From assembly GCA_008632985.1 (NCBI GenBank), contig QPGO01000197.1:62001-126000 (forward strand): a stretch of DNA of 64,000 bases, given 5' to 3'. How positions within the stretch are numbered: position 1 is the first letter of the stretch; every line of letters begins with the position of its first letter. The position numbers were made by a program, and so were the translations under genes. Below, in pieces: positions 25,116-64,000 of the stretch. The DNA comes from Psammoneis japonica. Taxonomy: Eukaryota. The notes beneath the pieces were generated by a model that was not told where the DNA came from, ran no database searches, and saw only the letters and a list, made by a program, of their open reading frames with translations.

Positions 25116-25567
25116 TGCAGCGTGCATGCAGACAAAAGGTCATTTTTTTTGTCACGCCCTTTGTGACATTTAAAGGCTGCAACACGTCGCCATGATGCAT
25201 TGACTCTTGTCAGCAGCTGCACATTGCACTCCTCCCCACATGTGTCACGCGTCCATGCGGCTCTTTGCCAATGTGTGCTGACACTGCATGGTTTTGGCGG
25301 AACAGTGTGGGCACGCACGAAGGAACACACAGAACTGCACAGAGTTTTGCGTGTTCGACAGTGATCAACGTTGCTGCAGACAACTCCCACTCAGGGTTTC
25401 GAACCCCTGGACTCCTGCCCAATGGTCGCGATGAACCACTCCGCTGTGAATTCACAACGCAGCATGCATGCAGACAAAAGGTCATTTTTGTCATGCCCTT
25501 TGTGACATTTAAAGGCTGCAACACGTCACCGTGACACATCAACTCTTGTTGGTGGCTGCACATTGCA
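25116..25567 (-). mobile_element. TRIM-like miniature LTR element, copy 1 (LTRs 25116-25228 and 25458-25567) with internal tRNA-like A/B-box
   Basis: ~110-bp direct terminal repeats; TSD CATG (25112-15 / 25568-71); PPT GGGGAGGAG on minus strand next to the LTR; second copy at 63196-63642. Confidence 0.8.
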
Positions 25568-30275: not shown

Positions 30276-30844
30276 GATTGCGGGTGTCGTGTTTTGAAAA
30301 TTGTGAGCTGACGCGTGTGATTGGAATTCGCGATCGGCATGAGAAATGCGAATCCCAATCAACACAACCACGATTGAACACGCCGTTCCAACGGACCGCA
30401 ACGGACAATCATTTATTGGAACTGTTGAGTTAGATTTTAATGGATATGAGGAAGGACAGCAACCATTCCAAACACTCGGCATGACCAACACCATGGTGTT
30501 GCTGCCATTGTGACAAGCGGAACAACGAATGAAACGGCATTGTTGAAGTCGCTTTTGATTTTGTGATTGCGATCTTCAGTCACGACCGTTAAAATCATTC
30601 CCGTTTCCTTGGTAATGGCGTCTGGCTGTCGCTCGCTCAAAAAGCCCGCGAAAAATAGAAAGCGGTGCAAACGGCGCAAAAACGCGGTGACACCGGTGCG
30701 ATGGCGATGGGATTCAACGCCTTTCACTTTCATCAACTGCCCAACCTTGTTGTTCCAACAATCTGTGAATGTTTGCCATGACGGCATTGCACTCCTTCCT
30801 GCGAGCACGTCTGAACATCCTTGTTGGTTTTGGCTTTGTTTCAG

Positions 30845-33800: not shown

Positions 33801-34070
33801 GGCACCAACCAGCAGGCAGACAATGGCGCGCGTGTTGGCAAAAATGCTGTCGCAACAGCCAATGCTGTGTGCCTGCATGGTGAGTCGCACCAATGCCTGT
33901 GAAAACACATGTCTCACAATGCTCTCAGGCAAGCTCGTGGTGCCGCAAGGCATCAACATGATGCAAGTGGCAACAGCTCATCAGAAAGTGGTGCTCATGT
34001 TTGTTGGCAATGAGGTCAACAAAGGTGCAGAAGCAGCGTGGCTTTTTTGCAATTGCGCAGCTTCCACCTG
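30845..34070 (+). pseudogene. Decayed host-like gene(s) including a WD40/beta-propeller-like segment (~32800-33500), TpA-depleted
   Basis: Protein-like fragments across broken frames (MDHSDEEEQEQRLVDTLQNLE; SSNVKTFDLRSGKA; KGVMMWDIGALKPM); Tyr nearly absent. Confidence 0.4.
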
Positions 34071-34782
34071 AGCTCGCAGAAAAATTTGGCGGTCATTGGC
34101 ACCAAGTGAGAGCATCTTTGCCAGCAAGTCATGAACATGAACCCGCGTCTGTGCATCTTCTGATGCAAATGAGACTCACCCAAAATCATCATTTTCAGTG
34201 GATCACAAACCCACTTGTGGCGCCAATGACCCTTGCAGATGCCTGTTGGCGCAAAGATTGCTCCAACCCTAGAACTTGCTCAAGGTTGCTGAACAGCCTC
34301 AATCAAGAGAGATTGCTTTTGCGCCATGCTGGCAGAACCCCCAGTCTTTGCTGCAAACTGTTGGGTGCGAGGGGCCACAATTTTGGTGGGTTTGTCTGGG
34401 GCACACTGCACTTCTGCATGGTTGCCATGAAGCAGCAGGTTGAGTGATCAGCGGCACTCTCATCAGCCTGGTTGTGGCCATTGCAAGGTGCTGACAGGGT
34501 TCCTCCTTGCACCCACCAGTTCTGGACATGCCCGCTACACCACAGCCAATGAAACCACCATGACTCAAAGGCACTGACAAGAAGGCAGTTTAAGACCAAA
34601 GCAAGAACGGCAAATCTTTGGTGACAAAATCATGCACATCATGACAACAATCCTGAGAACAAGTTGCCCCCCTCCTCTGCCATTTTTGTGTGGGGTGCTG
34701 AAGCTCCTGTTCAACCAAAGACTTTCCTTGGGGAGCGCTGCAGAGAAAAAAAAGCATGTCCTCAAAGCAGCACCAGCAGCTG

Positions 34783-36190
34783 CTGTGGGTCCCAACCCTT
34801 GAGCAAATCCAAACTGGCGTGGCAGGCGCACTCCTGATGAGCGCACAGACCATCACCGCTGCGCCATTGCTGTCGCGGGGAATTTGATCAAATCTTGCAC
34901 CGACGATGGTGATGATTGCGACGCCAAGAAAGTCATCTAAACCTTCGATTCTGCGAGAATGCATTTGGCACACAATCAATTGGCACCTGTTGGACAGGTG
35001 TCTAAATGCGTTCTCCACGATTTTGATTTTGTGGCGAGCTGTTGATGAACACACCGATTCAGTCGTTCGTGACGCCATGTCACGTGCCGAGTCTTCATCA
35101 ACCACTCATTCGCCGGATTTTCGACACCTGCTGAGAGTGAAAGCCAGCGGACATGTGAAGGCAAGGGTGTAGAATCGAAATGGTGTTGTCATTGTGCCAA
35201 AGTCTCGCCACTTGTTGTCTCACTCAACTGTCATGCAGACGCAGCCAATTTTCACAGTGTCAATCGTCGTGTGAGCTCATCGACAAATCCAATGTCGCAG
35301 TCCCATCGTCAAACCCGTTTTAGCAACGACAATGACAAGAAGAACATTTTTCAAGACTTTGACAAAGCAACTGCAATGCGATCAGCCAGTGTTTTTGAGT
35401 GGGAGAGGGTGGGGCGTGGGTCGGATTTTTGAGCAAAAATGCAGAGTGAAGTTGGCGCACTGTTGAAAAGAAGCAGTCAAACAACGTTGACAAAGTTGCA
35501 CATTGATGACACTCTCCTATAGAAGAGTGAATTTATGCAATGGAAGTGCCCCCTTGCTTGCATGTGCTCTAGATTGATCGCAAAAACACAAAAATGTTAA
35601 ATCTGAAAACAGGAGTGTGTTGCTTGTAATGAGTTTTTGTGGATTGCTTGGCCTGTCTGTGGCATGAAAGAGGTCAAACACAGTTGTCACGAGGCCAGCC
35701 ATGGATGTAGAGAACAGAAAACAGCCATGAAATGGGTCTTGTGTTGATGTTGTCATCTAATCTCGGTGTCGAGAACACTTCATCGTACAGTGAGTCACGT
35801 GTCTTGAATCCCGTGTGACCCACTCGACTCAACATTTTTGGCAGAATCAGCTGGACTTTGATCCCCGCTAGAGCCACAAAATGCACAAGATGTGAGCATT
35901 GTCAGTCTCCTGCCCTCCAAAACAATGTCTTGCGAGAACAGATTGGGCATGCATTGTTCATGGTGTCAGGCATTTGAAAATGGAACTGACGTTTCGCGGA
36001 GCACCTTTGTTGCACGTGAAAGTGCGAGGAACGATTTTCAGTCATCGCTCTACAACTAACGCAACCCTCTGCTTGCGACCCCAAAAGTCATCGGGAACTT
36101 TGTGTCAGCATGATGTCAGTTGGATGAAAATGCATTTTGGCAAAAAATGGGGGGGTTGTGATCACAAGTGGAAGCATGACGGACCCATGG
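34783..36190. mobile_element. ~1.4-kb insertion with short TIRs in duplication unit 1
   Basis: Absent from unit 2; ends CTGTGGGTCC..GGACCCATGG (a perfect TIR if ancestral CTATGGGTCC..GGACCCATAG); a 3-bp TSD CTG makes the empty site the same length as in unit 2. Confidence 0.55.
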
Positions 36191-37004
36191 CTGCTGCCAT
36201 CATGGTTTCTTTCTGTGGCATCATGTTTTGACACTGTGTGGTCATTGCTTTCAAAAAGACTGCAAGGCATGTGACAATGGAAGAGTGCTTGAAATGTGAT
36301 GCAATGCGGGCAAAAATGGACTTGAAGGGTGGGGACAAAGTGTGATGGCATTGTTGCAGCAGCAGCTGTGCAGGACTCAGGGTTGCTGGCCTCAAACCAA
36401 GCTGCACATGGCAAGGAAGGCTCTCTGTTTCAAGCTCTGTGTGCAGTGTTCTTTTGGTTTTGGGGTGCTGCAACGACTCTCTGCCACTGGACCTTGGAAG
36501 GTTGGTGCCTGGCAGTGGCTGCTCAGTTGCTTGCCACACCCTCACACCCCCCACACCCCTGAGCTGTGGGTGTGCAGAACAATGGAGTCTTCAACAGCTG
36601 ACAAGATCCCACAAATGAAGTGCGTGTGAGCACCCCAGCTTTGGAGAGGTGTGGCATCAATGACAAGGGTGCAACCCAACAAATGGCAGTTGCCGCTGAT
36701 GGCATGTTTCCTGGCCAACGCCCTTTCTCCATTGGTTTGTCACTCCAGCCGGCATTGAGTGAAGCAAGTTGCCAGGAGGTGTGTGTCACCAGCTCTCTAA
36801 ACCACTCATGTCACCACCCTCATCTTGTTGGCCAGCGTCATTGCGTGGGGCAAAGTTTGAAGATGACAGCCAAGATGAGGGATGATGGCATGCACGCACG
36901 CAGAGCGCAGAGATGCGGCAGGGAAGCCGCGGCATGCCGGCAGAGGGCCTTCTGCATAAAATCATCTCACACGGTGCACCTGCAACCCTCGCTGGCTCAT
37001 GACA

Positions 37005-37756
37005 ATGGGCTTTGAGACAAGCACTTTCATCTGCCAGCCGGCAGACAAAAATCTTTGCTGTCCATTGTGCCTGCAAGTTTTTGACAGCCCAGTGACCACA
37101 TGCCGTGAAGGTCGCGTGCTCTGCAAGGCATGCTTCAACAAGCTGCGCCCTCCAGACAAGGGAAACATCACTGTGGCCACCTCCAACAAATGCCCGCAGT
37201 GTCAAGGATGCTTGGTGGACACACCACTTCCAAACCACCCTCTCCAAGGCATCATGTCTGGCCTGAAAATGAGATGCGAGAAGGTCACTTGAACTGTGTT
37301 GCCTGCGCCAGTCATTGCACCGGAGCATGCAACTGGCAGAGAACTGTGGAGGAATGTGTCACCAACCACAAACAAACTTGCAATCCCTTCGATTTGCATG
37401 GTGGCTCAACAGAATGCTCAGCAGCACAAGAGCAGATCAGACGAGGTGCTGACAGCATTGCGGCAGCTGTGCTGGAGTCGGGAGAAACCAAAGAACAAGG
37501 CAAGGCTTTGGTGCAAGCCCCGGCCCATGATGACGCATGGTCAGTTTCTCTTGCCCTTGGAGGAGAACAGGCCAGGGTGGATCACCTGTTGCCAGTGGAC
37601 TGTTCTCATTTGGCAATGAGGGAACAGGGCAGATTCATTGGGGACTTTTGTGGTGGCAAAGCAGAGATCACTTGGGAAGAGGCACGTGTTTTCTTTGTCA
37701 GGTGCGTGCTCGACCAGATTCATTCAAATGATGAAGGCCAGGAAAACAAGGAATGA
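37005..37756 (+). pseudogene. Hypermutated, frameshifted copy of the RING-finger gene at 39691-40494
   Basis: Colinear with the intact gene; many TA->CA/TG and CG->CA/TG changes; frameshift near 37280 and an internal deletion. Confidence 0.9.
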
Positions 37757-39690
37757 ACTTTGCGGCAGTGGAAGACAAGGAGCAACGCCAGGGGGAACGC
37801 ATGTCACATCATCCTGAGTGATTCCTTGCGTGCCTCACCATTTGTTGTGTTCTCCACAATGTAGAAAACTGATTTTTGCAAAGCTTTCACATTCACTGGC
37901 TCCAATTGCATTGCAAATTAACATGTGCCAATGCTGATGTTGCTGCTGCACCCTGCTCTGCCCCCCATTTGACAGCAGCAAAATCACTTGGGCTGGTTGC
38001 CAAGGAGGATTGATGCAAGGGCTGGAAGACTGGAAATGCCCTGATGCTTTGTCAACCTCAGCATGGTTCCGAAGTGCAGATGGGCAGGCAGCATGTGCCG
38101 GCACGGTGCAGCACCTGTCCCAGTCATCACATGTGAACGAACATGCACGCATGCCAAAAAGGGGCCACAGTCTTTGGGTGCCATCCACCTTCCAAAATTG
38201 CAAATGAAAATTGCAACTTTCCAGCACAAAAAGAGTGCTGAAATCCTGGAGAAAACAGTGTGTTGCCATGGCAGCATGACAGTTGATGCTTTCTCAATGA
38301 GACAACATTGCAGAGGCAGGCCCATCAGCAAAGATTGCTCAAACCCTGGAACTTGAGATTGCTTCCACACCACTCTGGCAGAGCTCCAGCCAGTCTTTGC
38401 TGCAAACTGTTGGATGTGAGGGGCCTCAATTTTGGTGGGTTTGTCCTGGGCACCCTGTGTTTCTGCATGGTCAGCCATGGAGCAGCAAGTTGTGTGGTCA
38501 GCGGCACTCTCGTCAACCCAGCTGTGACCATTTGCAAGGTGCTGACAGGGCTCCTCTTTACACCCAGCTCTGGACATGCTCTTGAGCCACAGCCAACAAG
38601 GCTGGGGCTCAATGGTGCTGACAAGAAGGCAATTTGTGACTCACATGAGAGCGGCAAATCTTCAGCAACAAAATGGTGCACACCATGACAACAATCCCCT
38701 GAGGACAATTGCCCCTGCTCCTTTGCAAATTTTGTGTGGTGCTGAAACTCCTCTTCAACCCAAGACTTTTTTCCTCGGGGGACACAACAGAGAGAGAGAG
38801 AGGTCAGAGCATCCTGTCAAGCAGCACCAGTGGCAGCTGCCATCATGTCTCTTTCTGCAACCTGATGGTTTGATGCCATCTGATCATTGCAAAAAGACTG
38901 TGAGGCAAGTGGTGGTGGAAGTCTTGAAATGTGATGCAGAACAGACCAAAAAGTGCTTGAAAGAGAGACTGAGTGTGATGGCATTGTTTTGGCAGCAGCT
39001 GCATGGTGGGGTTCTGGGTCGCTCTCAAACCAAGCTGCACATGGCAAGGAAAAGGCCGTCTGTTTCAAGGTCTGTGCACAGTGTTCTTTCAGCTTGAAGG
39101 GTGCTGCAAAACAACTCTCTGCCAGATCTCTGAAGGCTGCTGCCTGGTGCCCCCCCCCCCAAGCCTTGGCTGGGTGCGCAGAGTGCGGAGTCCTCCTCAG
39201 CTGGCAAGATCCCGCAAAAATGAAGCACTCACCTCAGCTTTGGAGAGGTGTCAACACAAAGGGCATGACCCAAATGGCAGTCAACACTGAGAGTGTGTTT
39301 CTTGGCTGATGCCCTCTCTCCATCTGTTTGTCACTCAAGCCAGCGTGCCAAGTGTGAAGCAAGTTGCCGGGTGTGGTGTGCTGTGTGTGTCACCAGCTCT
39401 GCTGTGAACCACTCCTGTCGCCACCCTCATCTAGAAGGCCAGCGTCATTGCATGGGGCAAACATTTGAGGATGGCAGTCAGACAAGATGAGGGATGAGGC
39501 CAGATGCGGCAGAGATCAAGGGAAGCCAGTGGCAGGGACTTCTGCGGATTTACATGACGGATGGTCCTTTCCATCCATCACACTCCAGAACAGATCCTTT
39601 CTTTTTTGGTCTGGCTGTCGTCGTAAGCTCATTCTTCCATCGCAATGATGTGTGTGTCAATAAATCGTCTCACACACCGGCAGATAGACA

Positions 39691-40494
39691 ATGGGCTTCG
39701 AGACGAGCGCTTTCATCTGCCAGCCGGTAGACGACAATCTTTGTTGTCCATTGTGCCTACAAGTTTTTGATAGCCCAGTGACCACATGCCTTGAAGGCCA
39801 TGTGCTCTGCAAAGCATGCTTCGACAAGCTGCGCACTCCGGATGAGGGAAATAATAATGCAATTGCTGCCTCCAATAAATGCCCGCAGTGTCGTGGATGC
39901 TTGGTGGATACGCCACTTCCAAACCGCCCTCTCCAAGGTATCATATCGGGACTGAAAATAAGATGCGAAAGTCACTCGAACTGCGTTGCCTGCACCGGTC
40001 GTTGCACCGGAGCATGCGACTGGCAGGGAACTGTGGAGGATTACGCCACCCGGCATAAACCAACATGCAGTCATTGCAGCTTTATATCCTGTGAAGCGTG
40101 CACGACTATGGTCCGAAACTGTTGTGTTGATTCGCACAGTGGCTCAACAGAATGCCTAGCAGCGCAAGAGCAGATCAGACGAGGTGCTTATGGCATTGTG
40201 GCAGCTGTGCTAGAGTCGGGAGAAACAGACCAAGAGCGAGGCGAGTTTTTGGTACAAACCCTAATCCATGACGACATGTGGTTAATTTCTATTGGCCTTG
40301 GAGAACGGGTCGGGTTGGATTACATATCGCCTGCGGACTATTCTCGTTTGGCAACGATGGAACAGGGCGGATCCATTAGGGACGTTTTCGGCGGCAAAGC
40401 AGAGATCACGGAGGAAGAGGCTCGTACGTTCTTCGTTAGGTGCATTCTTGGCAAGATGAATTCAAATGTTGAAGACCAGGACAATGAAGAATGA
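39691..40494 (+). CDS. C3HC4 RING zinc-finger protein (TRAF/SINA-like arrangement)
   Basis: CPLC..CLEGHVLCKAC..CPQC RING, followed by LKIRC..CDWQG..H..C zinc finger. Confidence 0.88.
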   Translation: MGFETSAFICQPVDDNLCCPLCLQVFDSPVTTCLEGHVLCKACFDKLRTPDEGNNNAIAASNKCPQCRGCLVDTPLPNRPLQGIISGLKIRCESHSNCVACTGRCTGACDWQGTVEDYATRHKPTCSHCSFISCEACTTMVRNCCVDSHSGSTECLAAQEQIRRGAYGIVAAVLESGETDQERGEFLVQTLIHDDMWLISIGLGERVGLDYISPADYSRLATMEQGGSIRDVFGGKAEITEEEARTFFVRCILGKMNSNVEDQDNEE

Positions 40495-41313
40495 ATTATT
40501 TTGCGGTAGTAAACGTCAAGGGGCAAGATCAGTGTGAACGGATTGTCTGTGATCTTATATCCGGGCGTGATTTCTTCTTCTACCCCTTTGTTATTATTTG
40601 TCATATTCCCTATTCCGATTTATGCGTTGGAAGGATACATGTAGTACATGATAAGATTCGGATCATATCTTTTGCGACGTATTGATGGAAATCTTCTCTT
40701 TGGATCCATTTGCGCAATAGAATGTGTCGATCTTTTTAATCTCTCTTGTTGTTGCATATTGCAAAGCTTCCGCATCCACTGACTCCAATTATTTTACAAT
40801 TAACTTTTGTGCGTATGCTCATGTTGCTGCTACATCCTGCTCTGCCCCATTGAACAGCGGCAAAAAAAGTGACTTGGGAAATATGGTCGCCGAGGAGGAT
40901 AGATGCAAGGACTGGAAGACCGGAAAGTTCCAGAATGCTTCGTCAACCACGACATGGTTCCGAAGCGCAAATGGGCAGGTAGGATATCAGTGCGAAAGAA
41001 TGCACATAGGAAGGTTGGGGTAGATGGCATGAGCCAGTGCACCGTACAGTCCGAAGGAGCCAGGCGTGGTAGTATGTATTAGATGCAGAAAAGAAATACA
41101 TCATAGCTTTTAGGTCGAGAACTGAATGCGAATGGCTTGTAAGCACTTCGCTTTTAGAGTGACGCAAGAGAGCCATTCTCTTCATTCTGAAATGCAATAT
41201 CATATTGCGATCTTGCCGAAAAGAGAAGTGCCAACAATGAGCCAGACATTTTAAACTCAACTTTGCTTTGCAAATAAATAAACTAATGTGACCTAAGCCA
41301 ATTGAAAAGTAGT

Positions 41314-48452: not shown

Positions 48453-49084
48453 GCTCTTGCCAGAGATCTGTGCAATACGATACAAGCAACTCGAGGGAAG
48501 AGAGAATGAGTGAAACATTTATGGCCTTTACCTTTACACATCAAAAAGATCATGGCCGTTTTTGCCGGTGACAATTTCGAATGTTTTCTGTCGAAGACCT
48601 CGAAAATATTATGACTGCTTCATGTAAGACCAATGACTTTGATAGATATTCATTTAAGGCGGGTCATCCCCGCGTTTATCCTAGAAATTGCAGTGTCTCG
48701 CACCTTATTTTTCTGATATATAGTATTAATGAACCTATTAGATATAACGGAAGCCGTTGTAACGGGCTTCGCTGAAAGCGACCCTCGTTACCTCGGTCTT
48801 TCGCTCACAATTTTGTCATCACTGAAGTCTTTATCTCGTTAGACCTTGCACTGTAATTACAGTCGATTCAAAGAACTGGATGGAGACTAGGAACAATACA
48901 AACAAATTGACTAAACGTGAGAAAAGAGAACCACGCGCAAGAGCAGCAGTTTGGGCTGTTGAGCACCAGAAACAAGTGCAACAACGCAAACGACACGAAC
49001 AGAATTTGGCGAGCCGAGTGCATCATTTGGAGTCAAAGGTAGAGTCCCTGGAGAGGACTGTTGAACAATTGTATTCCCTTTTTC

Positions 49085-50699
49085 ATGATGAGTGAATCGT
49101 TGAAGGAGCCTTGCATTGGCTGTGAAGCTGAATTTGAGCATTCTGACTTGGAGGAAGTGAAATTGACCCAATCGCATGATGACGGCAGTGCTCATACAAA
49201 AAAGTGTCCGCGTTTTGATGGTACTCATGGCATTGAAGCATTGTTATTCGTTGAGGATCGTTTTCGTAAAATTGCTGTGAAATTGGAGTGCACTGCTGGC
49301 GAGGAGTTGTTCGAAAATTTCGAGGAAGTGCTTGCGGATGCTGCAGACGCGTTCCAGGTCTAGCTGGGACCTCGTACTGCTGAACTGTGACATCGATAGT
49401 TTTTTGAATCACGTCGTATGTCGCGCACGTAGATTTCTACGTGATTTTTTTGATATTTTGTGTCATTTTACGGTACACTTATTGAGCGATCCGTCCAACA
49501 ACTTTTGACATTTTTTGTTACAGCGCGATTCTATAATGTCTTAAGAATCGCTTAGGGCAGGTGCATTTGCAAAAACGTCGAGTGGTAAGAGGCATAATTG
49601 TACCACAAACTTGGCCGTTTATTTGATGTTGAAGATAAATATATCCATTAATTAAATTCTCGTACTACGGAGCTCGCACGTAGAATTCTACGGGCCCAAT
49701 GTCACACGGAGTCCCACCTGGGGCTGGAACGCGTCTGCAGAGGACAAGTGGGCGAACTTGACCAATGCAATTGACGATGCCGATAAAACTGTCGAGCGTT
49801 TTGATCAGGAAATCAATCGTTTTTACTTGTCTTATTGTGACAATGAAGCACGTGATGTGATGATTGAATGTTTGCCAACCTTGAAAAAACCATTCAAATC
49901 TGAAGTGCAGGCGCATGCAGATCGCATGGAAACCTTGATTCGGTGCTCCAACAAACTTCCAGGAAACACTCCTCAAGTCAACAAAGCTCAGAAGAAAAAG
50001 ATGATGTTCGACAGCTTTCCTCGTCCGTGGCGTGAGATGTGTGCTCGAGCAGGACGAGCGACAGTGAATGACACTCTCGCTGAGATCATCAGTTGCACGA
50101 ACAACGAGAAATCTTTTGCTGACAAGAGTGGCAACAAGAAGCAGGACAAGAAGAGGAAAAGCAATGGTGCTTCGTCTCAAGCTTCAAGATGCTCTCGTGG
50201 CAACAGTGGCAGAACAGATCCAGAATCTAGATGCCCGGTGCATGCGAATCACGACCACAAGTGGAAGGACTGCATTTTGAATCCAGAAAGCCAAAACTGT
50301 CGACCGAGGTCCGACCGTGGTGGTCGTAGCGGAGGTTGTGGTGGAGGCCGAGGAAACCACCAAGGTGGAGGACCCCAAGGTCGAGGCGGTCGTGGCAACT
50401 TCCAAGGTCGAGGACGTGGCAATCATGGCAATCAAGGAGGATGTGGAGGCCGAGGTTACGGCAATTGTAACAACTCCCAGAATTCTCAAGGGAGTGGATC
50501 CCATTGCCAAAATCAAAACGGCACCCAAGCCAACGGTGACACCCAAGGCTGTGGAAATCCGGCTGGAGCAGCTCCTCCTGGTGGCTGGCAAATGGAGTCG
50601 CACCATTTTGATCAAGGAGGGCCTCGTGAGATGCGAGGTGGAAATGGACACGATCAGAATGGTTGCACCCATCAAGGCCAACGAAGTTGGCGTAATTGA
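49085..50699 (+). pseudogene. gag: Gypsy gag interrupted by a 390-bp MITE
   Basis: Removing 49346-49739 joins ..EEVLADAA-EDKWANL..; CPVHANHDHKWKDC knuckle; RGG-rich tail. Confidence 0.85.
49346..49735 (+). mobile_element. 390-bp MITE, copy 1 (TpA intact)
   Basis: 12-bp TIR GACGCGTTCCAG/CTGGAACGCGTC; 4-bp TSD TGCA. Confidence 0.92.
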
Positions 50700-53600
50700 C
50701 AAGGGACGGAAGTGCCCGAGTCAGAGCGTGTTGCTCAATCTTTTTATGTTTCGCGTGATCGTGAAGAAAATGTGTGTTTTAATGTTGATGACAATGTGGG
50801 AGACCTGATGGAATCTTGTGCTGTGAATGAAGAAAACTTGGGCGGCGTTTTGGAGTGCGCTGTGCCAACCCCTAAAACTGCGACTCCCAAACCATTGAAT
50901 GTGGTGCCAACGACGTTGATGGCGGCGCGCACCATTCAAAATCAAGAGAGCAAGCGAGTGTTGCGAGTGCTGTTGGATTCAGGAGGTGCCAACACTCTTG
51001 TTCATTCTCGAGTTTTGCCGAAGGGAGCGAATCCAACCATGAACGATGAAGGACGGTTGAGCTTTCAGACGGTGGCCGGACGATGTGAATCCTCCCGATG
51101 CGTCATTGTGAAGGACTTGACATTGCCAGAATTTGACAAGTCAAAACAAGTCGACAGTGTTGCGGCTCAAGTTTTTGACACCCCATGCAAGCATGATTTA
51201 ATTTTGGGACAAGACTTTTTGTCGAAAGCCGGAATCGGGCTTGATTTTCGATTTGGAACAACAAAGTGGTTGGAAACGTCGATCCCAATGAAGCAATCCA
51301 ATCATTGGAACTCAGTTCAGAATTGGTTGGATGCACTGGAAGACGACGGAGAGGACGAAGACGATGAGGAAGCCTTCGGACAATCTTTTGTGATGGACGC
51401 CAAATGCGAGAAAGCATCATCCGCGAAAGTGGCACAAGCTCAAACTCACTTAACTCAAGAACAACGTGATGAGCTGCGGGCTGTGCTTGAAAAGCATGAA
51501 ACCCTCTTTGATGGAACGCTTGGCAAATGTCCGCATGAGACTGTTCGCTTGGAAGTTGATCCCAACGCTGTTCCCTTCCATTCTAAGGCTTGCAAAGCAT
51601 CCAAGAGGGATGAAGCCGTTTTTAAGAAAGAACTGCAACATCCATGTAATGTTGGCGCACTGGAGCCAGTGGGACCAACTGAATGGGCAGCCGGAACTTT
51701 TGTAACTCCCAAAAAGGATGGACGAGTTCAATGGGCACCCGATTTTCGAGAGTCGAACAAGGTGCTCAAACGAAAGGTCTGTCCTCTGCCGATCATTCAA
51801 GACGTTGTTCACTGATGCTCGGGATGCAAGCACTTGACCAAGTTGGACCTCACTGTGTTTTATTGTCATGTTGAGCTTGACAAAGAATCCAAGGATCTGT
51901 GTGCTGTTGTTGCTCCGTTTGGAAAATTTCGATGTTGTCGATTGGCCATGGGTTTGAAAACCTCTCCCGATGTTGCTCAAGCCATCATTGAAAAAGTGGT
52001 GAAAGGAGTCGATGTTGAAACTTACATCGATGATGTTGCTCAATTTGATGATTCGTTTGATGCTCACATGCGTCGACTCGATGAGCTGTCATCCAGACTA
52101 GAAGAGAACAATCTGAAAATTAACCCACTCAAGTGCGAATGGTGTGTCCAAGAGACAGATTTTTTAGGCCATTGGCTCACGCCTGCAGGAGTCCGACCAT
52201 GGAAGAAGAAAGTGGAAGCAGTGCTACGAATGCAACCACCTAAAACCATGATGCAACTGCGATCGTTTGTCGGTGCGGCAACTTGTTGTCACAACATGTG
52301 GCCTCGTCGCTCACACGTGCTCGCTCCACTCACGAAGTTGACAGGCAAGAGCAAGTTGGAATGGACCCCTGAATGTCAACGAGCCTTTGAAGACATGAAA
52401 ACCTTGATGCTGGACGACACCCTTTGGGTCCACCCGAATCATGACAAGCCATTCCACATTTGTGCTGACTCTTCGGACTGTCAGATGGGAGCCGTGATTG
52501 TGCAAGACGGGAAACCAGTGGCTTGCTGGTCCCGGAAACTCAGCGCAGCACAACAGAACTGCTCTACGATTGAAAAAGAATCATTGGCGGTGGCAATGTG
52601 TTTCAAAGAATTTTGAAGCATGTTGTTTGGAGCTGACTGTGCTGTTTTTGTGGATCATAAAAATCTCACCTTTCGCACGCTCAATTCTCAACGAGTTCTT
52701 AGGTGGCGACTCTTCTTGGAAGATTTTGCCCCAACTTTCGAATGCGTTGATGGCAAAGACAATCTCTTGGCGGATTGTTTTTCAAGATTGCCGCACATGG
52801 ACCCTCCTGCGGAAGGGAAGTGTGCTCCCAACAAGGGCAAGCTGATTGATTTTAAGGCGATCGACCCTGCCATGCTGCCGCATGAAGAAGAGCTGGACGA
52901 CCAAAACTGTGTGTCTCATTTTTCCTGTCGTCGTGAAGAACCATCTCCATTTTACTCTTCTGTCGTGGACGACCCCAAATTGTGTGAATCATTTTTGAAC
53001 TGTCCTTCTCTCGAGGAAATGCAAAACCCCACAACTGTGCAACGAATTCAAGAACACCAATTCGTCGACGTGGAGCTGAACAACATGCGACAACAATGTC
53101 CAGAATGCTTCGTTGTGAAACATGTGAATCAGCGTCCTGTAATTTGTTGTCGTGCTCGACCGAATGATCCTCCGACTGCGTGGAAAATTTGTGTTCCAAC
53201 GGCGTTGCTGCACGACATCATATGATGGTGTCGTGGGATTTTGGGACATGCAGGAGTGCACCGAATGCATTCCACTGTTGGCGCACATTTCTGTCATCCT
53301 GCCCTTTGTCAATCCTGTGAAAGATTTCATTGTGCTGATTGTCAACATTTGAAAACTTTAGGCCCTGGGTGTGGGGACCCACCTGAACAGGAAGCGCCTT
53401 TGTTGCCATGGACGGAAGTTGCGGTTGATCTCATCGGTCCCTGGAAAATTGAAATTCAAAACCATGAAATCGAGTTCAACGCTTTGACTTGCATTGATGC
53501 CGTTTCGAATGTGACTGAACTTGTTCGCATCGACAACAAAACCTCGTCTCACATTGCTCAACAATTTGAAAATTGTTGGTTGTCTCGTCATCCTCGTCCC

Positions 53601-54194
53601 AACCGGTGCATCCATGACAATGGTGGAGAATTCATTGGAGAGGACTTTCAATTGTCATTGCAACGAGCAGGAGTGGAAGACGCTCCGACTGCGTCGCGAA
53701 ATCCACAAGCCAATGCGGCATGCGAGCGCATGCATCAAACTGTTGGAAGTGTCTTGCGCACTTTGCTTCATGTTTGTCCTCCACAGAATGTTGAGCAGGC
53801 CAATCAACTGGTGGACAATGCATTGGCAACCGCCATGCATGCAATGCGATGTGCGGTTTCTCGTGCTCTCAAGATTTCACCCGGTGCTGTGGTTTTTCAA
53901 CGTGATGTGATTCTCGACTTGCCGGTCCCAGCCGATCTTGCCGCCATTCAAGAACACCGACAAGCGATCATCAATGCGAATCTCCGTCGAGCCAACGCTA
54001 AACGCCGATCCCACGATTTTCAAGTTGGCGGACAAGTTCTGCTCAAGGCCATCGACCCAACCAAGCTCGAGCCACGAGCTCACGGTCCACATCCTGTCGT
54101 TCAAGTGCATGCTGACGGTGCGCTTGCGGTCCAACGTGCACCTCATGTGACAGAACGATTGAACACACGTCGCGTCGTACCGTGTCACACCTGA
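50700..54194 (+). pseudogene. pol: Gypsy pol (protease, RT, RNase H, integrase) with in-frame TGA stops and pervasive Tyr->Cys/His changes
   Basis: LLDSGG, YIDD, ADSSD..GAVIVQDGKPVACWSRKL, H..H..C..C, VDLIGP, DNGGEF, ERMH; TGA at 51813, 52614 and 53223 where CGA fits. Confidence 0.93.
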
Positions 54195-54434
54195 GGTCAA
54201 GGGTTTTCTCCCCAACATTTGGGTTTCCCTTCTATCCTCATCCATTGGAATTTAAATTTTTTGAGTCCCGCATGATTCTCGACACTCGAGTCATGGAAGG
54301 GAAGAGTGCAGTGTCTCGCACCTTATTTTTCTGACACACAGCATTAATGAACCTGTTAGATATAACGGAAGCCGTTGTAACGGGCTTCGCTGAAAGCGAC
54401 CCTCGTTACCTCGGTCTTTCGCTCACAATTTTGT

Positions 54435-54458
54435 NNNNNNNNNNNNNNNNNNNNNNNN
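54435..54458. other. Assembly gap (24 N)
   Basis: Run of n. Confidence 1.
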
Positions 54459-54776: not shown

Positions 54777-56007
54777 ATGAGGATTTCAACTGTGTGTGCT
54801 GTTACAAGTCTTGTTGTTGCCCTGAGTGCTGCTGTTGAAGGAACCTTTTATCCTGCAAACAACATAGAGAATTTCAGTTTTGCAGGCCGGTGGCAACAGC
54901 TTGAGGATGATGGTGTTGTCAGGTCGGACTGGCCGTGCAGCAGAGTGCAATTCAACATAAACATGACTGCAGAAGATGGCGTCATTACCCTCCGAGTAAA
55001 ACTTCATCGGGTGCGGCTCAACGCAGTCGTCACCAACGCAGTCACCGGCGAACTGGAGCAAACAACGATTCTGAAAGGTAATTCGTTTCGGCAGAGAAGG
55101 ATAAATACGGCATTCGAATTGAAGCACCGGAATGCACACCGTCACACTGACAAAATTGACACAAGCGGCACCCTATGGCAATGGTTTGGGCAAGTCAGCC
55201 ACGTCGGTGCTTGAATTCTATGGAGTAGAAATGGATGACGATGTCGCGACTCTTTCGCTTCCACCAAAACTGCCGGTACACCGGATTGGTTTTATTGGTG
55301 CCAGTGATACGGCAGGCTTTTGTGTGGATGGTACTCCGCAAGCATGTGACCATCTCGTTCGACCCTGGAAATACAACAATTGCGACTCTGCATATCCTGG
55401 CGTCTTGGGAAAACGTTTGAATGCCGAGGTGAGCGTCCAAGCCATATCAGGCATTGGACTGACGCAGAATGCGTTTGCGAATTTGCCAGTGGCGCTTGGT
55501 GAAAAAACAATACAGGATTATTACAACCGAACCCTTCAGACAGAGACGCTGCCTTTTTGGGACTTTGAAGAGTGGCGACCACACCTTGTGATTGTTTCTC
55601 TTGGTGGAAATGATTATAACCACCAAGAGGAGGTACCTTCCAACGAGACTTTTGTTCAAGCATATCAAAAGTTTCTTTTACAGATTGCCGAACCATATAC
55701 AAACGATGAAATTCCAACAATTGTGAGTATATGTGGGCAAGGGGACCCGACGGAACTGAGCCGAGATCCAAACAATGATCGTTGTCGGCCTTGTCCGTAC
55801 ATACAATACGCGGTCGAATCCTTTCAGACTATGCATGGTGCAACCATTCCGACCGAATACATTTTTGTTCCATGCGACGGCACGGTTGTGTCGGGAGATG
55901 GTGATATTGGTTGTGACGGCCACAAGAACCGGCTTGGTCAAGAGCGGGTGGCTGACTTTTTGGAACCAAAGCTTCGTGAAATCATGGGCTGGCCCAACAG
56001 CCAATAA
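54777..56007 (+). CDS. Secreted SGNH/GDSL esterase (carbohydrate esterase CE2-like); apparent frameshift ~55095-55125
   Basis: Signal peptide; FAGRW, FIGASDTAG (block I variant), AISGIG, LGGND, DGH; the paralogue at 57.7-59.3 kb has two extra bases here that restore the frame. Confidence 0.8.
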
Positions 56008-57346: not shown

Positions 57347-57670
57347 TCTGTTTCCACTCTTCTTGATTCTTGATGCAATGCTAGATGCTTAGCTACTGTA
57401 GCTATCGAAACTGAAAACTTCTGTGCGCCGCAAGCCGCAAGGCAGACAACGCCTGCAATGAGGCACAGAATCAAGACCAACACACACCCGAGACACTGAC
57501 AAGACAATCCCCGTGGACTGACGTCCGTCCCCCAGCCGTCCCGACGCCCGTCGCAGTTTTGAAGTTCGAAAGTTGTGCACATCGAACAAAAACCATCCCA
57601 TGGTTATGGTGTCACTGCCAACAGACAGCACCAACCTTGTTGCTTTTCAAGCTACAGCCGTCGTGTTGCT

Positions 57671-59320
57671 GTGAGGATTTCAACTGTTTGTGCTGTTGCA
57701 AGTCTTGTTGTTGCCTTGAGCGCTGCTGTTGTTGAAGGAACCTTTTGTCCTGCAACAATGCAGAGAACTTCAGTTTTGCAGGTCACTGGCAACAGCTTGA
57801 GGACAATGGTGTTGTCAGGTTGGACTGGCCATGCAGCAGAGTGCACTTCAACACAAACATGACTGCAGAAGAGATGGCATCCTTGCCCTCCGAGCAAAAA
57901 TTCATCGGGTGCAGCTCAGTGCAGTCGTCGCCAACACAGTCACCAGCAAACTGGAGCAAACAACAATTCTGAAAGGAAATTTGTTTCAGCCAGAGAAGGA
58001 CAAACATGGCACTCAAATTGAAGGCACCAGGGTGCACACCGCGGCATTGGCGGACGTGCTCCAGCCCCAGGTGGGACTCCGTGTGACATTGGGCCCGTAG
58101 AATTCTACGTGCGAGCTCCGCAGTGCAAGAATTTAATTGATGGATGTGTTTGTTTTCAACATCAAATAGACGGCCAAGTTTGTGGCACAATTGTGCCTCT
58201 CACCACTCGACGTTTTTGCAAATGCGCCTGCCCTGCGCGATTCTCAAGACGTCACAGAATCGCGCTGTGACAAAAAATGTCAAAAGTTTTTGGACGGATC
58301 GCTCAATGACTGCACCGTAAAATGACACAAAATGTCGAAAAAATCACGCAGAAATCTGTGTGCGCGACATGCGACGTGATTAAAAAAACTGTCGACGTCA
58401 CAGCTCAGCAGTGCGAGGTCCCACCCAGACCTGGAACGCGTCGGCGCTGACAAAATTGCTGACACAAAAGCGGTGCACCCTGTGGCAACGGTTTGGGCAA
58501 GTCAGCCATGCCGGTGCTTTAATTCCACGGAGTGGAAATGGATGACGCTGTTGCAACTCTTTCAACTCCACCAACACTGCCAGCATGCTGGGCTGGTTTT
58601 GTTGGTGCCAGTGATGTGGCAGGCTTTTGTGTGGATGGCACTCCGCAAACATGCAGCCATCTTGCTCAACCCTGGAAATGCAACAATTGCAACTCTGCAT
58701 GTCCTGGCATCTTGGGAAAACGTTTGAATGCTGAGGTGAGCGTCCAAGCCATTTCAGGCATTGGACTGACGCAGAGTGCGTTTGCAAATTTGCCAGTGGC
58801 GCTTGGCAAAAAAACAATGCAGGGTCATTGCAACCGAACCCTTCAGACCAAGACACTGCCTTTTTGGAACTTTGAGGAGTGGCAACCACACCTTGTGATT
58901 GTCTCTCTTGGTGGAAATGATTGCAACCACCAAGAGGGGGCACCTTCCAATGAGACTTTTGTTCAATCACATCAAGAGTTTCTTGTGCAGATTGCCACAA
59001 GCCATTTACAAACGATGAATTTTCAACAATTGCGAGCACATGTGGGCAAGGGGACCCGGCGGAACTGAGCCAAGATCCAAACAACAATCATTGTCAACCT
59101 TGTCCACATGCACAAGATGTTGTCAAATCCTTTCAGATTGCGCATGGTGCAACCATTCTGACCGAACACATTTTTGTTCCATGCAACGGCCCGGTTGTGA
59201 TGGGAGTTGGTGACATTGGTTGTGACAGCCACAAGAACCGGCTTGGTCAAGAGCGGGTGGCTGACTTTTTAGAACCAAAGCTTTGTGAAATCATGGACTG
59301 GCCAAACAGCAAATGCGTTT
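57671..59320 (+). pseudogene. Hypermutated duplicate of the SGNH esterase gene, interrupted by MITE copy 2
   Basis: Colinear with 54777-56007; start ACTATGAGG->GCTGTGAGG; WKYNN->WKCNN, AYPG->ACPG, DYYN->GHCN, NDYN->NDCN. Confidence 0.93.
58053..58442 (-). mobile_element. 390-bp MITE, copy 2 (inverted, TpA-mutated)
   Basis: Reverse-complement match to 49346-49735, same length; TSD GGCG (58049-52 / 58443-46). Confidence 0.92.
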
Positions 59321-59620
59321 GACAGAGCCGATGGTTGCACCAACAAATGGAGTTGTTGACACAAGAACCAGCTTGGTCAAGAGCGGGTGGCTGACTTTTT
59401 AGAACCAAAGCTTTGTGAAATCATGGACTGGCCCAACAGCTGACATGCGTTCGACAGAGATGATGGCTGCACCAATGAATGGAGTTGTTGACACAAGAAC
59501 CAGCTTGGCCAAGAAAGGGTGGCTGACTTTTTAGAACCAAAGCTTTGTGAAATCATGGACTGGCCTGACAGCTGATGCGTTCGACAGAGCCGATGGTTGC
59601 ACCAACAAATGGAGTTGTTG
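59231..59620 (+). repeat. Tandem triplication (~130-132 bp unit) of the esterase pseudogene 3' end
   Basis: ACAAGAACC..TTTTTAGAACCAAAGCTTTGTGAAATCATGGACTGGCC units starting at 59231, 59361 and 59493. Confidence 0.9.
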
Positions 59621-62201
59621 TGATGACTGCCAGACAACTGCGGACATTGTTGTCTGCTCATGTGGTGCCATGTGCAACATTGCAACTTTGTCAGAAGTTA
59701 ACTTGCTGTAGAAAGTGACTTTGGTTTTAGTTTCCTCTTGCATTGGTGAGCTTTTGGATGATGAGAACTTGCCTCTCTCTCTGCTGCACCAGGCAATCTT
59801 AAGACCAGGTGCTGTTGCCACACGTGCATCTCTTGAGGAGAGAGAAAGAGATTGTTCTAAGTCAGAGTGATTGTGGCTGATGCGTGCAAAGCTGCCATGT
59901 GTTTGGAAGTTGTGGTGTCTCTCATGAATCAGGCTGGAGGTGTTGGCATCCTTTTGCACTGCCAGGAATCCCACTGCACCAGTCTCATTTTCAAGCAAGA
60001 ATCTTCCACACCAGTGCTCATGTCCCAAGTTTCTCAGATGCGGAAGATTGGAGACCAACAGGAAATGAAGTGGTCTGTGCTTCCCCCTGCATGAGTGTGT
60101 GTGTGTGTGGTGGTGTGTGTGTGGGGGGGGGGGGGGTGCTGTGCGTTGCTGCTTCTGAGGTGCTTTGTGCATTGCAGAAGCAGCACTCATGGCTGCGAGC
60201 ACCTGACAAGCCACGGCAACCTCACTCTTTTCTTTCACCAATGTTGCACTGCATGTTTGACGAGTTGAGAGTGAGTTTTTGCTTGCAGCCCACACCACCC
60301 ACCCATTGTGGCTCTCTGGCAAGAGCTCCAGTTCTGGGTTCCTTGAGTTGCAAGCTCTGGCTTGAGGTCTGGTGCCAGTGGCTTGCACCACAACCAACCA
60401 GAGTGCTCAAAATCAGGATCATCAGCCAACAGTGAAGAGCAGAGTCAGAGAATGACAGAGGTCAATTGACCAGCAATTGCTGAAGAATCAGCTGGTTGGC
60501 CATTGAGCAAGTCAAAATGACAAGGAATTCAAAGACTCAGGTTGCACCTGGCACTGGCAAAGCTGGTGCTGGAAGCAAAACAAGAGCAGTGGTGCTGGGT
60601 GCTTGCTGAGGAAGCAGCACATGCTCCAGCCACACACGAGCTTTTGTTGTGATCTCAGGACAGCCAGCAATGCTGAGCTGGGAGGATTGCCTCAGTGAAT
60701 GGTTGTGATTTCCAAGTGCATGTGCTCATGATTGGTGTGCCACACAAACAGCACCCAGTTGCTTGTGCACTCTGTGGGAGCATCTTTGCTGCAGTTGTGC
60801 CTGCTGTGCAATCTTTGCAAGTTTTTCACATTTTTGATCTTTTCAACTCTGCTGAAATTTTTTGCCAACAGACAGCACACCACCGACCAGGGAGGTTTCC
60901 ACAGAGAGAACGTTTGATGTGCGGCTGCTGCAGCGCACCTTGGATCCTGTTGCATCATGGCATTTGTTGATTCCGCTGCTGGCGCGGCCGTGCTTGCTGG
61001 GGCAAGAGCTGGTGGTGGTGGTGGTGGTGGGGTGGAGGTTGAGAGTTCAAATCTGAGGCTCTGTCAAAAAAGCAATTGTGGCTTGTGAGGCAAAAGAAGA
61101 GCTGCCGCCGAGTGCTTCGCCAGCCTGGAGCCACTGTTGCTCTGTGTTTTGCACTGGTCACTGGCTGCCATCAAATGGCCAATGGAGTTGTGTGGTTCTG
61201 TTGCATTGGGGCCGGGAGACACAGAAATGGATTGCAGTTGAGTCACATGAAGAGCTGCGGGGGCGGTGAAAAAAGACAGAGCTGGAGCATGGGATTCAGA
61301 TGGGATTGAACACAACCAGGCCTGCGGGGAGCATTGACCACTTGTCTTTCTTTGTGGGTGTGGGTGCATGTGTGCCGTTGCATGCTGCATTGCCTGTACG
61401 TGCACAGGGCCCTGCCGTCGGGGCCGGCATTGTGGTGGCTGAGTGGCGTGGCCACCGCACCGGTGACGCGGATGACCGTCACATTTGATGTCTCATGCCA
61501 TTTTTGGGGCTGCAGCGAGGTGCACGGACACTCTTTTTTTTCCAATTTATCGCCACAACAGCACATCGCACAAACTCACTTGTTGTTTGATGTGTTTTCC
61601 CCAGTCTGACTTTTTCATGTAGAATTCACGACAAATTGTCTTTGTGTGCAACTGAACACATTTTTGAACATGCCACGCCGGCAATCCCAATTTTTCAGAA
61701 CTTTTGAGCTCTCCTGAAAAACCGTGCCATGCACCAGTCGCAGGGAATTTGCCGATTTTTTAGGATGTCCCCACAACCTCTCATGTCCTCAATGACAATT
61801 CCAAGAATCCGAAGAATTCATCTGCACTGAACAACCCATGCCCTTTCAAAATCCAAGGGACACACTTTCAAATTCAGACGGACAAACCGACTGCCCCACT
61901 GCCCCACTGCCCCACTGCCGGACCGACACGAAAAAGTCTGCAATCACCAACCACTGAGTGGTCAATGATTTGTTCTTCTGCTCACGCATGTCATGCTTCG
62001 AGCAGTCATGCAATCTGTCCGTCGGTCTGTGCGTGAAGCCAAAAAATGACAAAAGAAAACAAACAATGAAAGAAGGCTCTGCGTGCGTTGCAGGTTGCAG
62101 CAGTGAAGCATCCAGCATTGCTGCGATCGCTGCATGCTGCGTCTCTTCATCCTCCCCACCTTGCCATCATCTTGAGTGCCACTTTTGACAACAAGCCTTC
62201 C

Positions 62202-62984
62202 ATGACTTCCTTTGACCAACTCGACAAGGGTGTTCAGCGTGGGCTGCAAGTCCTTGCAACACAGCATCGGCATGCTGTCGTTCAAGCAGTTCTCAAGAAA
62301 GAAGATGACTTTGGCAGGACAGAAAGTCATGAACTGTACAAAGGCTGTGCGCAAATCATGAAGGAAGAGAATTTGTCCCCTGCTGCATTTCTGGCTCGCT
62401 CTTTTGACATGAAGGTGCTGACGGGTCACGCTGAGTGGCTGGAAGCACCCTGTGACAAAAACAACGACACCGTGACCGACTTGTGCACATGCTTGGAACA
62501 AGCGTGGCTCAACCGAGAATTTCCGAACAAATCAATTCCGATGTGTGACAATGCCAATCATGAGGAAATTGAAGGGAGGAAGAAGAAGCTCGAGCGCGAG
62601 GCCCGTGAGAATTCGTCGTTCGAGAAGAATGATCCAACAGAAATGACCAAGCCACACTGCCGGTTCTTCATCTGCCTTGCACATGAAGAAAAGGACAACA
62701 ACCAACCTCCTGAAAACTTCTATGAAATGGCAGAAGAGGCGGCTCAAGCTTTCTGGGAATTGATGTTTGGAACCTGTGGGCATGCCAATTGCCACTTGGA
62801 TTGCCCCGGTTGGCTTGCAAACAAATTCTTCATCTCTGCTGAAGTTGAACTTGAAAACATGGAAACCACTGGTGTTCCGGAAACTGCAGAACTGATTGAT
62901 CAAGAAATCTCAATGAAAGGGGTGTTCAGATTGGATGCGGGTGATGTTGGAAAGAGTTACGTTGAAATCACTCGTGTGGAATGA
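62202..62984 (+). pseudogene. Protein-like open frame inside a TpA-depleted block (hypothetical protein or mutated relic)
   Basis: 260 codons with natural composition (E/K-rich coiled stretch), few Tyr. Confidence 0.45.
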
Positions 62985-63195
62985 ACGCCTGGTGTGGCAC
63001 ATGGCTCTTGCATTGAGGTTCACAGTGCCACTTGATTGCCAGGGGACAGCTCGGGGAACACATTCCACATCTTGTGAATGGTCGTGCGGTGGCAGAGACA
63101 CGTTCACATCACCGTGACAAATGTTGCTTTGCATTCTAATGACCAACGACAAAGGCTGCAACACAACTCAAACCATTGTGCAGAACTGCAGCCAT

Positions 63196-63642
63196 TGCAG
63201 TGTGCATGCAGACAAAAGGTTGTTTTTGTCATGCCCTTTGTGACATTTAAAGGCTGCAACACGTCGCTGTGATGCATTGGCTCTTGTTGGCAGCTGTGTG
63301 TTGCACTCCTCCCCATGTGTCACGCGTCCATGCGGCTCTTTACTGACATGTGCTGACACTGCACGGTTTTGGCAGAACAGTGTGGGTGCGTGCGAAGGAA
63401 CATGCAGAACTGCACAGAGTTTTTACGCGTTCGACAGTGATCAACGTTGCTGCAGACAACTCCCACTCAGGGTTTCGAACCCCTGGCCTCCTGCCTGATG
63501 GTTGCGATGAACTGCTGCATTGTGAACTCACAATGCAGTGTGCATGCAGACAAAGGTCATTTTTGTCATGCCCTTTGTGACATTTAAAGGCTGTAACACG
63601 TCGCCGTGACACATTAGCTCTTGTCAGCAGCTGCACACTGCA
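63196..63642 (-). mobile_element. TRIM-like miniature LTR element, copy 2
   Basis: Same structure as 25116-25567; ends TGCAGTGT..ACACTGCA; flanks CCAT/CTGT. Confidence 0.8.
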
Positions 63643-64000
63643 CTGTCCCATTGTTGCCGTTGCATCTCTCTAGACTGCAAATTTCAGTTTGTCGTGTTCG
63701 CAAGCAGCTGCAGTGTTGCACTCATCTTGCAAACTTTCCTTCCTTCTGATTGTTCCGTCCTTCTCTTGCTTGAGATGGTCCCTGCCACGCATGCCGGCAG
63801 AAGTCAGTCACCCGATCTGGGGGGGAAGCATTTTGGTTTTAGGCGGGCGGGCTCATCGCGCCCTTGCCCAGTCATGATGTCACGATCACGATCACGTCCA
63901 TCCATCTGTCTCATCAACGCAGACGGGAAATTGACCGTGCTTCCACCAAATGGCAAACTGCCAACTGCTGCTCTAGATCAGAGAGGGTCATCACCAGAGT

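Follow-up and report, generated by a model that had tools for sequence, protein, structure and literature searches.

We analysed a window of 64,000 nucleotides from the pennate diatom Psammoneis japonica (assembly GCA_008632985.1, contig QPGO01000197.1, positions 62,001 to 126,000 of the forward strand; positions below are counted from the first letter of the window) and found a dead long terminal repeat (LTR) retrotransposon whose interior has lost most of its TpA dinucleotides to TpG or CpA. The element was probably eroded after it had been copied, by a hypermutation of TpA to TpG/CpA that acts on DNA and prefers the motif 5'-TAY-3' (Y, pyrimidine; R, purine), and the few differences between its two LTRs would be the fringe of the mutated tract. 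Sequence context, polarity in the interior and in four other pairs, domain structure and motif together show a one-directional, context-specific and domain-limited transition process on DNA that runs faster than CpG decay. Table 1 lists the features concerned.

The two LTRs differ from each other only at TpA. They form a direct repeat with a spacing of 5618 nt, identical at 123 of 128 positions. T in the 5' LTR stands against C in the 3' LTR at 48717/54335, 48719/54337, 48721/54339 and 48724/54342, and A against G at 48737/54355. TA positions make up 24 of the 128, and five random sites would all land in them by chance with P = 1.6e-4. A sequence-only reading of this DNA had quoted the LTR strings and the 128 alignable bases correctly, and its counts hold: all five differences lie inside a TA of the 5' LTR, four are T-to-C changes within 8 bp and one is A-to-G, and neither the nine CpG sites nor any other position has changed. 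Its two further claims also stand. A process much faster than background agrees with divergence at 5 of 24 TA positions versus 0 of 104 others, and a distortion of LTR-based dating follows from a naive divergence of 5/128 (3.9%) when the non-TA positions give 0/104, with an upper 95% bound of 2.8%.

Table 1. Features of the retrotransposon and of other eroded or intact DNA in the window.
Feature	Position	Strand	Remarks
5' LTR, alignable part	48689-48816	+	128 nt; begins TGCAGTG; 12 TpA; TATATA-like motif at 48716-48722
Rest of 5' LTR and leader	48817-49042	+	TpA rho 0.50; overlaps small basic/coiled-coil open reading frame (ORF) 48826-49095
N-terminal gag ORF	49043-49345	+	TpA rho 0.22; in frame with 49740 after removal of the 394-nt insert
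Insertion resembling a miniature inverted-repeat transposable element (MITE)	49346-49739	.	394 nt, ~35-nt inverted ends (CTGCAGACGCGTTCCAG...); TpA rho 0.90, not depleted
gag-protease-reverse transcriptase-RNase H-integrase, one frame	49740-54194	+	TpA rho 0.09-0.14; CpG rho 0.80-0.99
Four in-frame TGA	50697-50699, 51813-51815, 52614-52616, 53223-53225	+	no in-frame TAA or TAG
Polypurine tract ggaagggaagag	54295-54306	+	directly adjoins the 3' LTR
3' LTR, ends at gap	54307-54434	+	7 TpA; at five further TpA sites of the 5' copy this LTR has CA (four) or TG (one)
Assembly gap	54435-54458	.	24 N; target-site duplication and 3' LTR end hidden here
Intact GDSL/SGNH esterase gene, copy 1	54777-56007	+	normal TpA; unmutated partner that polarises copy 2
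GDSL pseudogene, copy 2	57572-59358		inside D3; broken by eroded MITE 58050-58445
Second MITE copy	58050-58445		TpA-eroded
Island D1	18400-28300	.	TpA rho 0.00-0.16, CpG 0.05-0.8, CA/TG 1.5-2.2
Island D2	30100-39550	.	holds eroded copy 37001-37802 of intact SINA-RING gene 39688-40494
Island D3	57350-64000	.	depleted through the window end; contains the GDSL pseudogene

The element is a dead LTR retrotransposon with the Ty3/gypsy domain order gag, protease, reverse transcriptase, RNase H, integrase. A single reading frame (49656-54194) contains no TAA or TAG, its only stops being the four TGA, and Pfam families match it in the order Asp_protease_2 (residues 435-521, under the cut-off), RVT_1 (715-840), RT_RNaseH_2/RT_RNaseH (903-1024) and rve (1265-1350, under the cut-off). 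A search with its gag-pol found 534 homologous polyproteins, with identities of 62-63% for the best. Our read evidence consists of the contigs of three runs, X1-X3, from one sample. Contig depth (~2000-3600 versus ~55 in flanking DNA) puts the family at ~40-60 copies, and run X1 contigs of other copies differ by 3-8%. One X1 contig shows the empty site of the gag interruption at 49346-49739, passing from 49340 to 49735 and skipping 394 nt. Most other copies in run X1 read C (CGA) at the TGA at 52614, where the homologue consensus is Arg, so at least this stop derives from CGA. No TGG-type primer-binding site could be placed after the 5' LTR, whose end is undefined and whose full length is hidden by the gap at 54435-54458, and none of the placed run X1 contigs bridges that gap. 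The leader also holds an 89-aa ORF (48826-49095) in which a basic stretch precedes a heptad-like arrangement of Leu and Val; to the eye it resembles bZIP, and it has no Pfam match.

TpA loss in the interior runs in one direction. The interior has a TpA rho of 0.09-0.14 with CpG at 0.8-1.0, against a window background of ~0.6 for TpA and ~1.0 for CpG. Low TpA is not a trait of the retrotransposon family, since 80 related metagenome loci have a median whole-locus TpA rho of 0.65 and a minimum of 0.39, none falling below 0.3. Direction can be read from conserved codons. Among 60 homologues, at least 80% agree in 407 columns, and the element departs from them in 71 of these; of 22 conserved Tyr codons 15 are now Cys (TGY) and four His (CAY); other changes include Val to Ala (GCA), Leu to Pro (CCA) and first-position A to G. 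With 19 of 22 conserved Tyr codons now Cys or His, the direction of change is TA to TG/CA, the opposite of fungal repeat-induced point mutation (RIP). When the comparison is extended to 120 homologues, Tyr survives in the element in 2 of the 23 columns with a Tyr consensus, where Cys plus His never exceed three in any homologue; Tyr makes up 0.3% of the element versus a homologue median of 3.6%. We saw no comparable erosion among these 120 homologous proteins and the 80 metagenome loci. CpG decay is slower: conserved Arg codons were lost at 7 of 30, compared with 19 of 22 conserved Tyr codons.

Erosion also differs from copy to copy and fades outward. Among the differences listed between copies, other run X1 copies retain TA at 52625, 53929 and 54184, where the window copy has TG or CA, and at 49245 the window copy keeps TA and other copies read CA. 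At the Tyr codon 51192 the window copy reads CAT, other X1 copies TGT, and the homologues show Tyr. These differing losses indicate that erosion runs independently in each copy. Adjacent CA/TG double differences can also arise from CpG ancestors, so we rejected them as a general proof that TA was lost independently and kept such a doublet as evidence only at 51192, where the homologues show Tyr. Outward on the 3' side, TpA rho rises from 0.09-0.14 in the interior to 0.24 in the 3' untranslated stretch and 0.78 in the 3' LTR; on the 5' side it rises from 0.22 in the N-terminal gag ORF to 0.50 in the leader and 1.17 in the 5' LTR. The changed LTR sites occupy the third of the 3' LTR closest to the interior. 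For the LTR pair itself we infer that the 3' LTR is the mutated copy, from the uniform polarity elsewhere in the window and the TATA-like look of the 5' copy; the direction implied by the sequence-only reading (T to C, A to G) agrees with that polarity.

The same one-way loss occurs well outside the retrotransposon. Three islands, D1-D3, have a TpA rho of 0.00-0.2, CpG of 0.05-0.8 and CA/TG of 1.5-2.2, with TpA at ~0.6 elsewhere, and their borders are sharp to within 200-400 bp. The GDSL pseudogene is a tandem copy lying 3 kb from the intact esterase gene: 38 of the 45 TpA of the intact copy have become TG or CA in the pseudogene, two stay TA, and two sites run in reverse. Outgroup proteins back the intact copy at 58 non-synonymous differences versus 10, with five ties; the remaining differences are synonymous (24) or without an outgroup (2). 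In the SINA-RING pair, 24 of 31 TA were converted in the pseudogene, and in the MITE pair 23 of 28, with no reverse change in either. The MITE copies are 89.6% identical, and 23 of their 41 differences are TA versus TG/CA. Across the polarised pairs, divergence per position is 0.39-0.43 at TA versus 0.05-0.13 at positions that are neither TA nor CG. Eroded copies lose CpG (to TpG/CpA) as well as TA, so old tracts converge on CA/TG from both sides.

These pairs bear on what is targeted. In each duplication only one member is eroded; GDSL copy 1 and the SINA-RING gene at 39688 keep their TA. Targeting therefore appears to follow chromatin domains rather than homology. The occurrence of the loss in two pseudogene duplicates, a MITE copy and three islands, besides the element, points to a process acting on genomic DNA and not on retroelement RNA. 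The MITE belongs to a family of thousands of copies, judging from its contig depth in run X1 (~100,000-180,000 versus ~55 for single-copy DNA).

The islands themselves carry little that can be named. We scanned 82 ORFs against Pfam, namely 80 island ORFs of at least 110 aa and two frames of GDSL copy 1. No transposon or viral family appeared among the island ORFs, and no family at all above the cut-off in those of D1; the matches were the Sina_RING and GDSL host-gene relics, a GPR1/FUN34 gene and one sub-threshold DUF. A tblastn search with the element's gag-pol and two homologues gave no match outside the element, phmmer with the longest D1 ORF found 0 homologues among 1.84 billion representatives, and searches of the islands turned up no tRNA and no Rfam family. 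They do have ORFs of 110-347 aa in all six frames, long and spurious because TA loss has erased TAA and TAG. In D1, two direct repeats (21894-22186 and 23724-24018) lie 1830 nt apart and are 79% identical, with ~15 adjacent CA/TG double differences, and a Cys/His knuckle-like peptide is encoded between them (~23190-23260); a small, old element fully saturated for loss of TA and CG may have had them as its LTR pair. At the edge of D2, a segment of ~2 kb is duplicated in tandem (36188-38094 versus 38831-40985), and the island border at ~39.5 kb cuts the second unit a little upstream of the intact SINA-RING gene. In D3, the 3' end of the esterase pseudogene has given rise to three tandem copies of ~130 nt at 59230-59620, which are 91-93% identical.

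The target is the extended motif 5'-TAY-3', equal to RTA for a T-to-C change on the other strand. Survival of TpA in depleted tracts relative to normal DNA depends strongly on context (chi-square P = 2e-32): it is highest in YTAR (TTAA 0.69, CTAA/TTAG 0.48, CTAG 0.25), 0.05-0.17 in mixed contexts and 0.00-0.07 in RTAY. Strand choice follows the same rule, with YTAY going to TG over CA at 19:6 and RTAR to CA over TG at 17:6 (Fisher P = 0.0012). The A that precedes a pyrimidine was the changed one at 36 of 48 informative sites (P = 0.0007). Among 89 strand-assignable TA to TG/CA events in the polarised pairs, the base following the mutated A was T in 37, C in 30, A in 15 and G in 7. The rule also explains why Cys outnumbers His at the former Tyr codons, the ratio being 9:2 at those that follow a pyrimidine (YTAY).

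Local context partly accounts for the LTR cluster. The 12 TpA of the 5' LTR comprise four RTAY, three RTAR, three YTAY and two YTAR; three RTAY, one RTAR (ATAG to ACAG) and one YTAY (CTAT to CTGT) have changed, and neither YTAR has. All five changes fit TAY, RTAY sites qualifying on either strand, so the run of four T-to-C changes is largely what the sequence permits. The sequence-only reading had taken same-strand clustering as a sign of a processive enzyme or repair patch. That suggestion is not supported, since strand choice follows local context and the run tests are non-significant: P = 0.40 for the LTR pair, and P = 0.16-0.76 for the four other polarised pairs, which are saturated and make weak tests of single events. 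Clustering in position is marginal, five of the 12 TA sites falling within six consecutive ones (P = 0.045). Processivity is thus not statistically supported, though it may still occur.

We propose that A:T to G:C transitions strike TpA in chromosomal DNA, with a preference for 5'-T-A-Y-3', inside sharply bounded silent tracts that would include transposon interiors, pseudogene duplicates and old repeat islands. Active genes nearby would be spared, even where they are the partner copy of a duplication. The five LTR differences would then mark the fringe of a tract that nearly saturates the element interior: the hits would fall in the interior-proximal part of the 3' LTR and in the most susceptible contexts, leaving both YTAR sites untouched. 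The events presumably came after integration. Chemically, the likeliest route is that a TadA/ADAT2-like enzyme deaminates adenine to hypoxanthine, which would be read as G; in the tRNA on which this family naturally acts, the site is U33-A34.

Several observations weigh against this account of the element. Since the 3'-LTR form was matched by one X1 contig as far as 54338, other copies of the element may also carry C there. All five hits lie in a single LTR (P = 0.06). Erosion of the LTRs is far lower than that of the interior (5 of 24 TA-site copies versus ~80%), so part of the interior damage could predate insertion. An uneroded MITE (TpA rho 0.90) sits within the eroded gag, so that the process may be episodic or not just a matter of region, unless the MITE arrived very recently. 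The LTR pair probably represents one insertion, given its coherent structure, the target-site duplication position lying in the gap. A chimeric assembly around the element is possible, given a family of ~40-60 copies and indel errors in the window assembly.

A different chemistry could leave the same footprint, although we consider it unlikely. 5-Formyluracil miscodes as C. A dioxygenase of the TET/JBP type might oxidise the T of R-T-A to 5-hydroxymethyluracil (5hmU) or 5-formyluracil, with miscoding or faulty repair producing T-to-C changes, and the motif reads equally well as R-T-A with T to C. In dinoflagellates, 5hmU preferentially takes the place of T in TA and TC and aids transposon silencing (PMC11572971). 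TC is unaffected in the window, which counts against such an enzyme here. The 5hmU:A pair is, moreover, not itself strongly mutagenic.

Still less probable is that the LTRs are not sisters, the assembly having joined different copies of the 40-60-copy family so that the differences are variation between copies. The gap directly after the 3' LTR, covering the target-site duplication position, leaves room for such a join, as do the high depth of the family (~2000-3600 vs ~55), the indels that separate the window from X1 contigs at 48350, 48475, 55091 and 55123, and the step in TpA rho between the 5' LTR (1.17) and the interior (0.1). The parts nevertheless fit one another, with a coherent LTR, leader, single gag-pol frame and polypurine tract adjoining the 3' LTR, and the 0 of 104 differences at non-TA positions fits sister LTRs when other X1 copies differ by 3-8%. 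Even if the LTRs were non-sisters, the TpA signature of their differences would stay.

Editing at the RNA or cDNA stage, by an ADAR-like enzyme on genomic RNA or an APOBEC3-like one on minus-strand cDNA, is very improbable as a substitute for a process on chromosomal DNA. Reverse transcription makes LTRs identical at integration, and RNA editing would leave them identical, yet these LTRs differ. The dominance of sense-strand A to G at Tyr codons (15 Cys versus 4 His) looks like RNA editing, but the TAY rule explains this bias, with 9:2 in YTAY. ADAR does favour a 5' U (10.64898/2026.01.13.699255, as its main text states). Sequences that are not retro-copied nonetheless bear the signature, namely a tandem gene duplicate, another pseudogene and a MITE, which has inverted ends. 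ADAR is, in addition, a metazoan family.

A RIP-like C-to-T process at CpA, with the 3' LTR ancestral and the 5' LTR having gained five TpA, can practically be set aside: the five LTR differences taken alone fit CpA to TpA plus TpG to TpA equally well and one X1 contig carries the C form, but every polarised comparison in the window runs the opposite way, the window repeats are TpA-poor rather than TpA-rich, and a single copy of each duplication is hit.

The process has its closest match in the chlorarachniophyte Bigelowiella natans. According to the main text of a 2026 bioRxiv preprint (10.64898/2026.01.13.699255), mutation-accumulation lines of that alga had 231 mutations in two integrated viral regions (one giant-virus and one virophage insert), of which 230 were A to G or T to C; the AT-to-GC changes were all on TpA and arose only in some lines, and the preprint proposes an ADAT2 homologue. 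The process in the window matches this TpA-only hypermutation; the motif and the target classes are new. In both, on the evidence of that text, A-to-G and T-to-C changes at TpA yield TpG and CpA and are confined to foreign or silent regions beside a normal genome. The footprint is likewise low TpA with high CpA and TpG, reverse transcriptase and DDE domains being enriched among TpA-poor genes of B. natans, and activity there appears intermittent, as the uneroded MITE may also suggest for the window.

The two cases also differ. B. natans belongs to the Rhizaria and the host here is a diatom. Unlike the viral inserts described in the preprint, the targets in the window are an LTR retrotransposon, pseudogene duplicates, a MITE and unidentifiable repeats. 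The window is far more deeply eroded, with a rho of 0.0-0.1 versus the 0.45 given for the B. natans virus insert, and the rates that the preprint measured are in the window only inferred. The main text of the preprint, as far as available, does not mention a flanking-base rule, LTR evidence, diatoms or processivity. In the literature that we searched, which included PMC2806351 and 10.1101/2025.10.24.684338 by term look-up, TpA erosion is nowhere reported for diatoms.

Other systems share parts of the pattern. As in fungal RIP, dinucleotide-specific transitions of a defence-like kind ruin transposons and duplicated genes and distort LTR dating. RIP, however, turns CpA into TpA and leaves AT-rich repeats; chemistry and direction in the window are opposite and its repeats are TpA-poor. 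RIP also hits both duplicates, whereas in the window the intact copy 3 kb away is untouched. ADAR hyper-editing and APOBEC3 likewise produce clustered transitions in retroelements as deaminase-based restriction, but they act on RNA or replication cDNA, and non-retro sequences are hit in the window; ADAR tolerates a far wider context than strict TpA, and the changes made by APOBEC are G to A or C to T. TadA and ADAT2-ADAT3, the tRNA deaminases, act on an adenine preceded by U or T, which the window motif T-A-Y fits. For bacterial TadA the sequence is U-A-C-G, and early base editors made from TadA favoured YAC. To our knowledge, natural editing of chromosomal DNA by the TadA/ADAT2 family is barely documented. 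Dinoflagellate 5hmU, found in another lineage of the SAR group (stramenopiles, alveolates and Rhizaria), shares the TA preference and the link to transposon silencing; it is an epigenetic mark that also prefers TC, a context unaffected in the window, and the portion of PMC11572971 available reports no mutational footprint.

Diatoms (Stramenopila) and chlorarachniophytes (Rhizaria) could conceivably share an enzymatic defence that edits chromosomal DNA at TAY in sharply bounded silent domains through an ADAT2/TadA paralogue recruited to DNA, a tentative proposal to which we give less than an even chance. Such a paralogue is suggested by the likeness of the TAY motif to the U33-A34 site at which tRNA adenosine deaminases act. 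A shared defence may destroy transposons, integrated viruses and redundant gene copies by A:T to G:C change, as a mirror image of fungal RIP. If this is true, TpA-directed DNA hypermutation would have a second, very distant algal lineage, and a single-species curiosity would become a candidate for a widespread eukaryotic genome defence. Relative to the available B. natans text, the TAY rule is new and narrows the enzyme search; retrotransposons, MITEs and duplicated host genes join the targets; and the hits on single copies in duplications argue for domain over homology targeting.

TpA erosion has practical consequences for annotation and dating. TA loss cannot create TAA or TAG and deletes existing ones, and what eroded elements retain are long, false ORFs with many Cys and His codons. 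Unless TA and CG sites are masked, dating diatom LTR elements by their divergence would inflate the ages; a 2025 preprint on diatom transposable elements uses such dating (10.1101/2025.10.24.684338).

Assembly quality and host genes complete the picture of the window. Compared with run X1, the window has indels at 48350, 48475, 55091 and 55123. X1 and X2 contigs each carry one extra base at 55091 and at 55123, and these bases fuse the GDSL frames 54777-55214 and 55123-56007 into one ORF; the window has either single-base deletions in its assembly or a strain difference at the two sites. Host genes in the window are long and uninterrupted. The closest named relatives of a major facilitator superfamily (MFS) transporter are in Phaeodactylum, Nitzschia, Mayamaea and Cylindrotheca (51-59% identity), and the esterase has relatives in Ditylum and Triparma. 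On the minus strand, 11141-18322 is an uninterrupted ORF of 2393 aa with internally repeated units and 9190-10206 a Ser/Pro-rich ORF of 338 aa; neither is TpA-depleted, and both are typical of intron-poor host genes.

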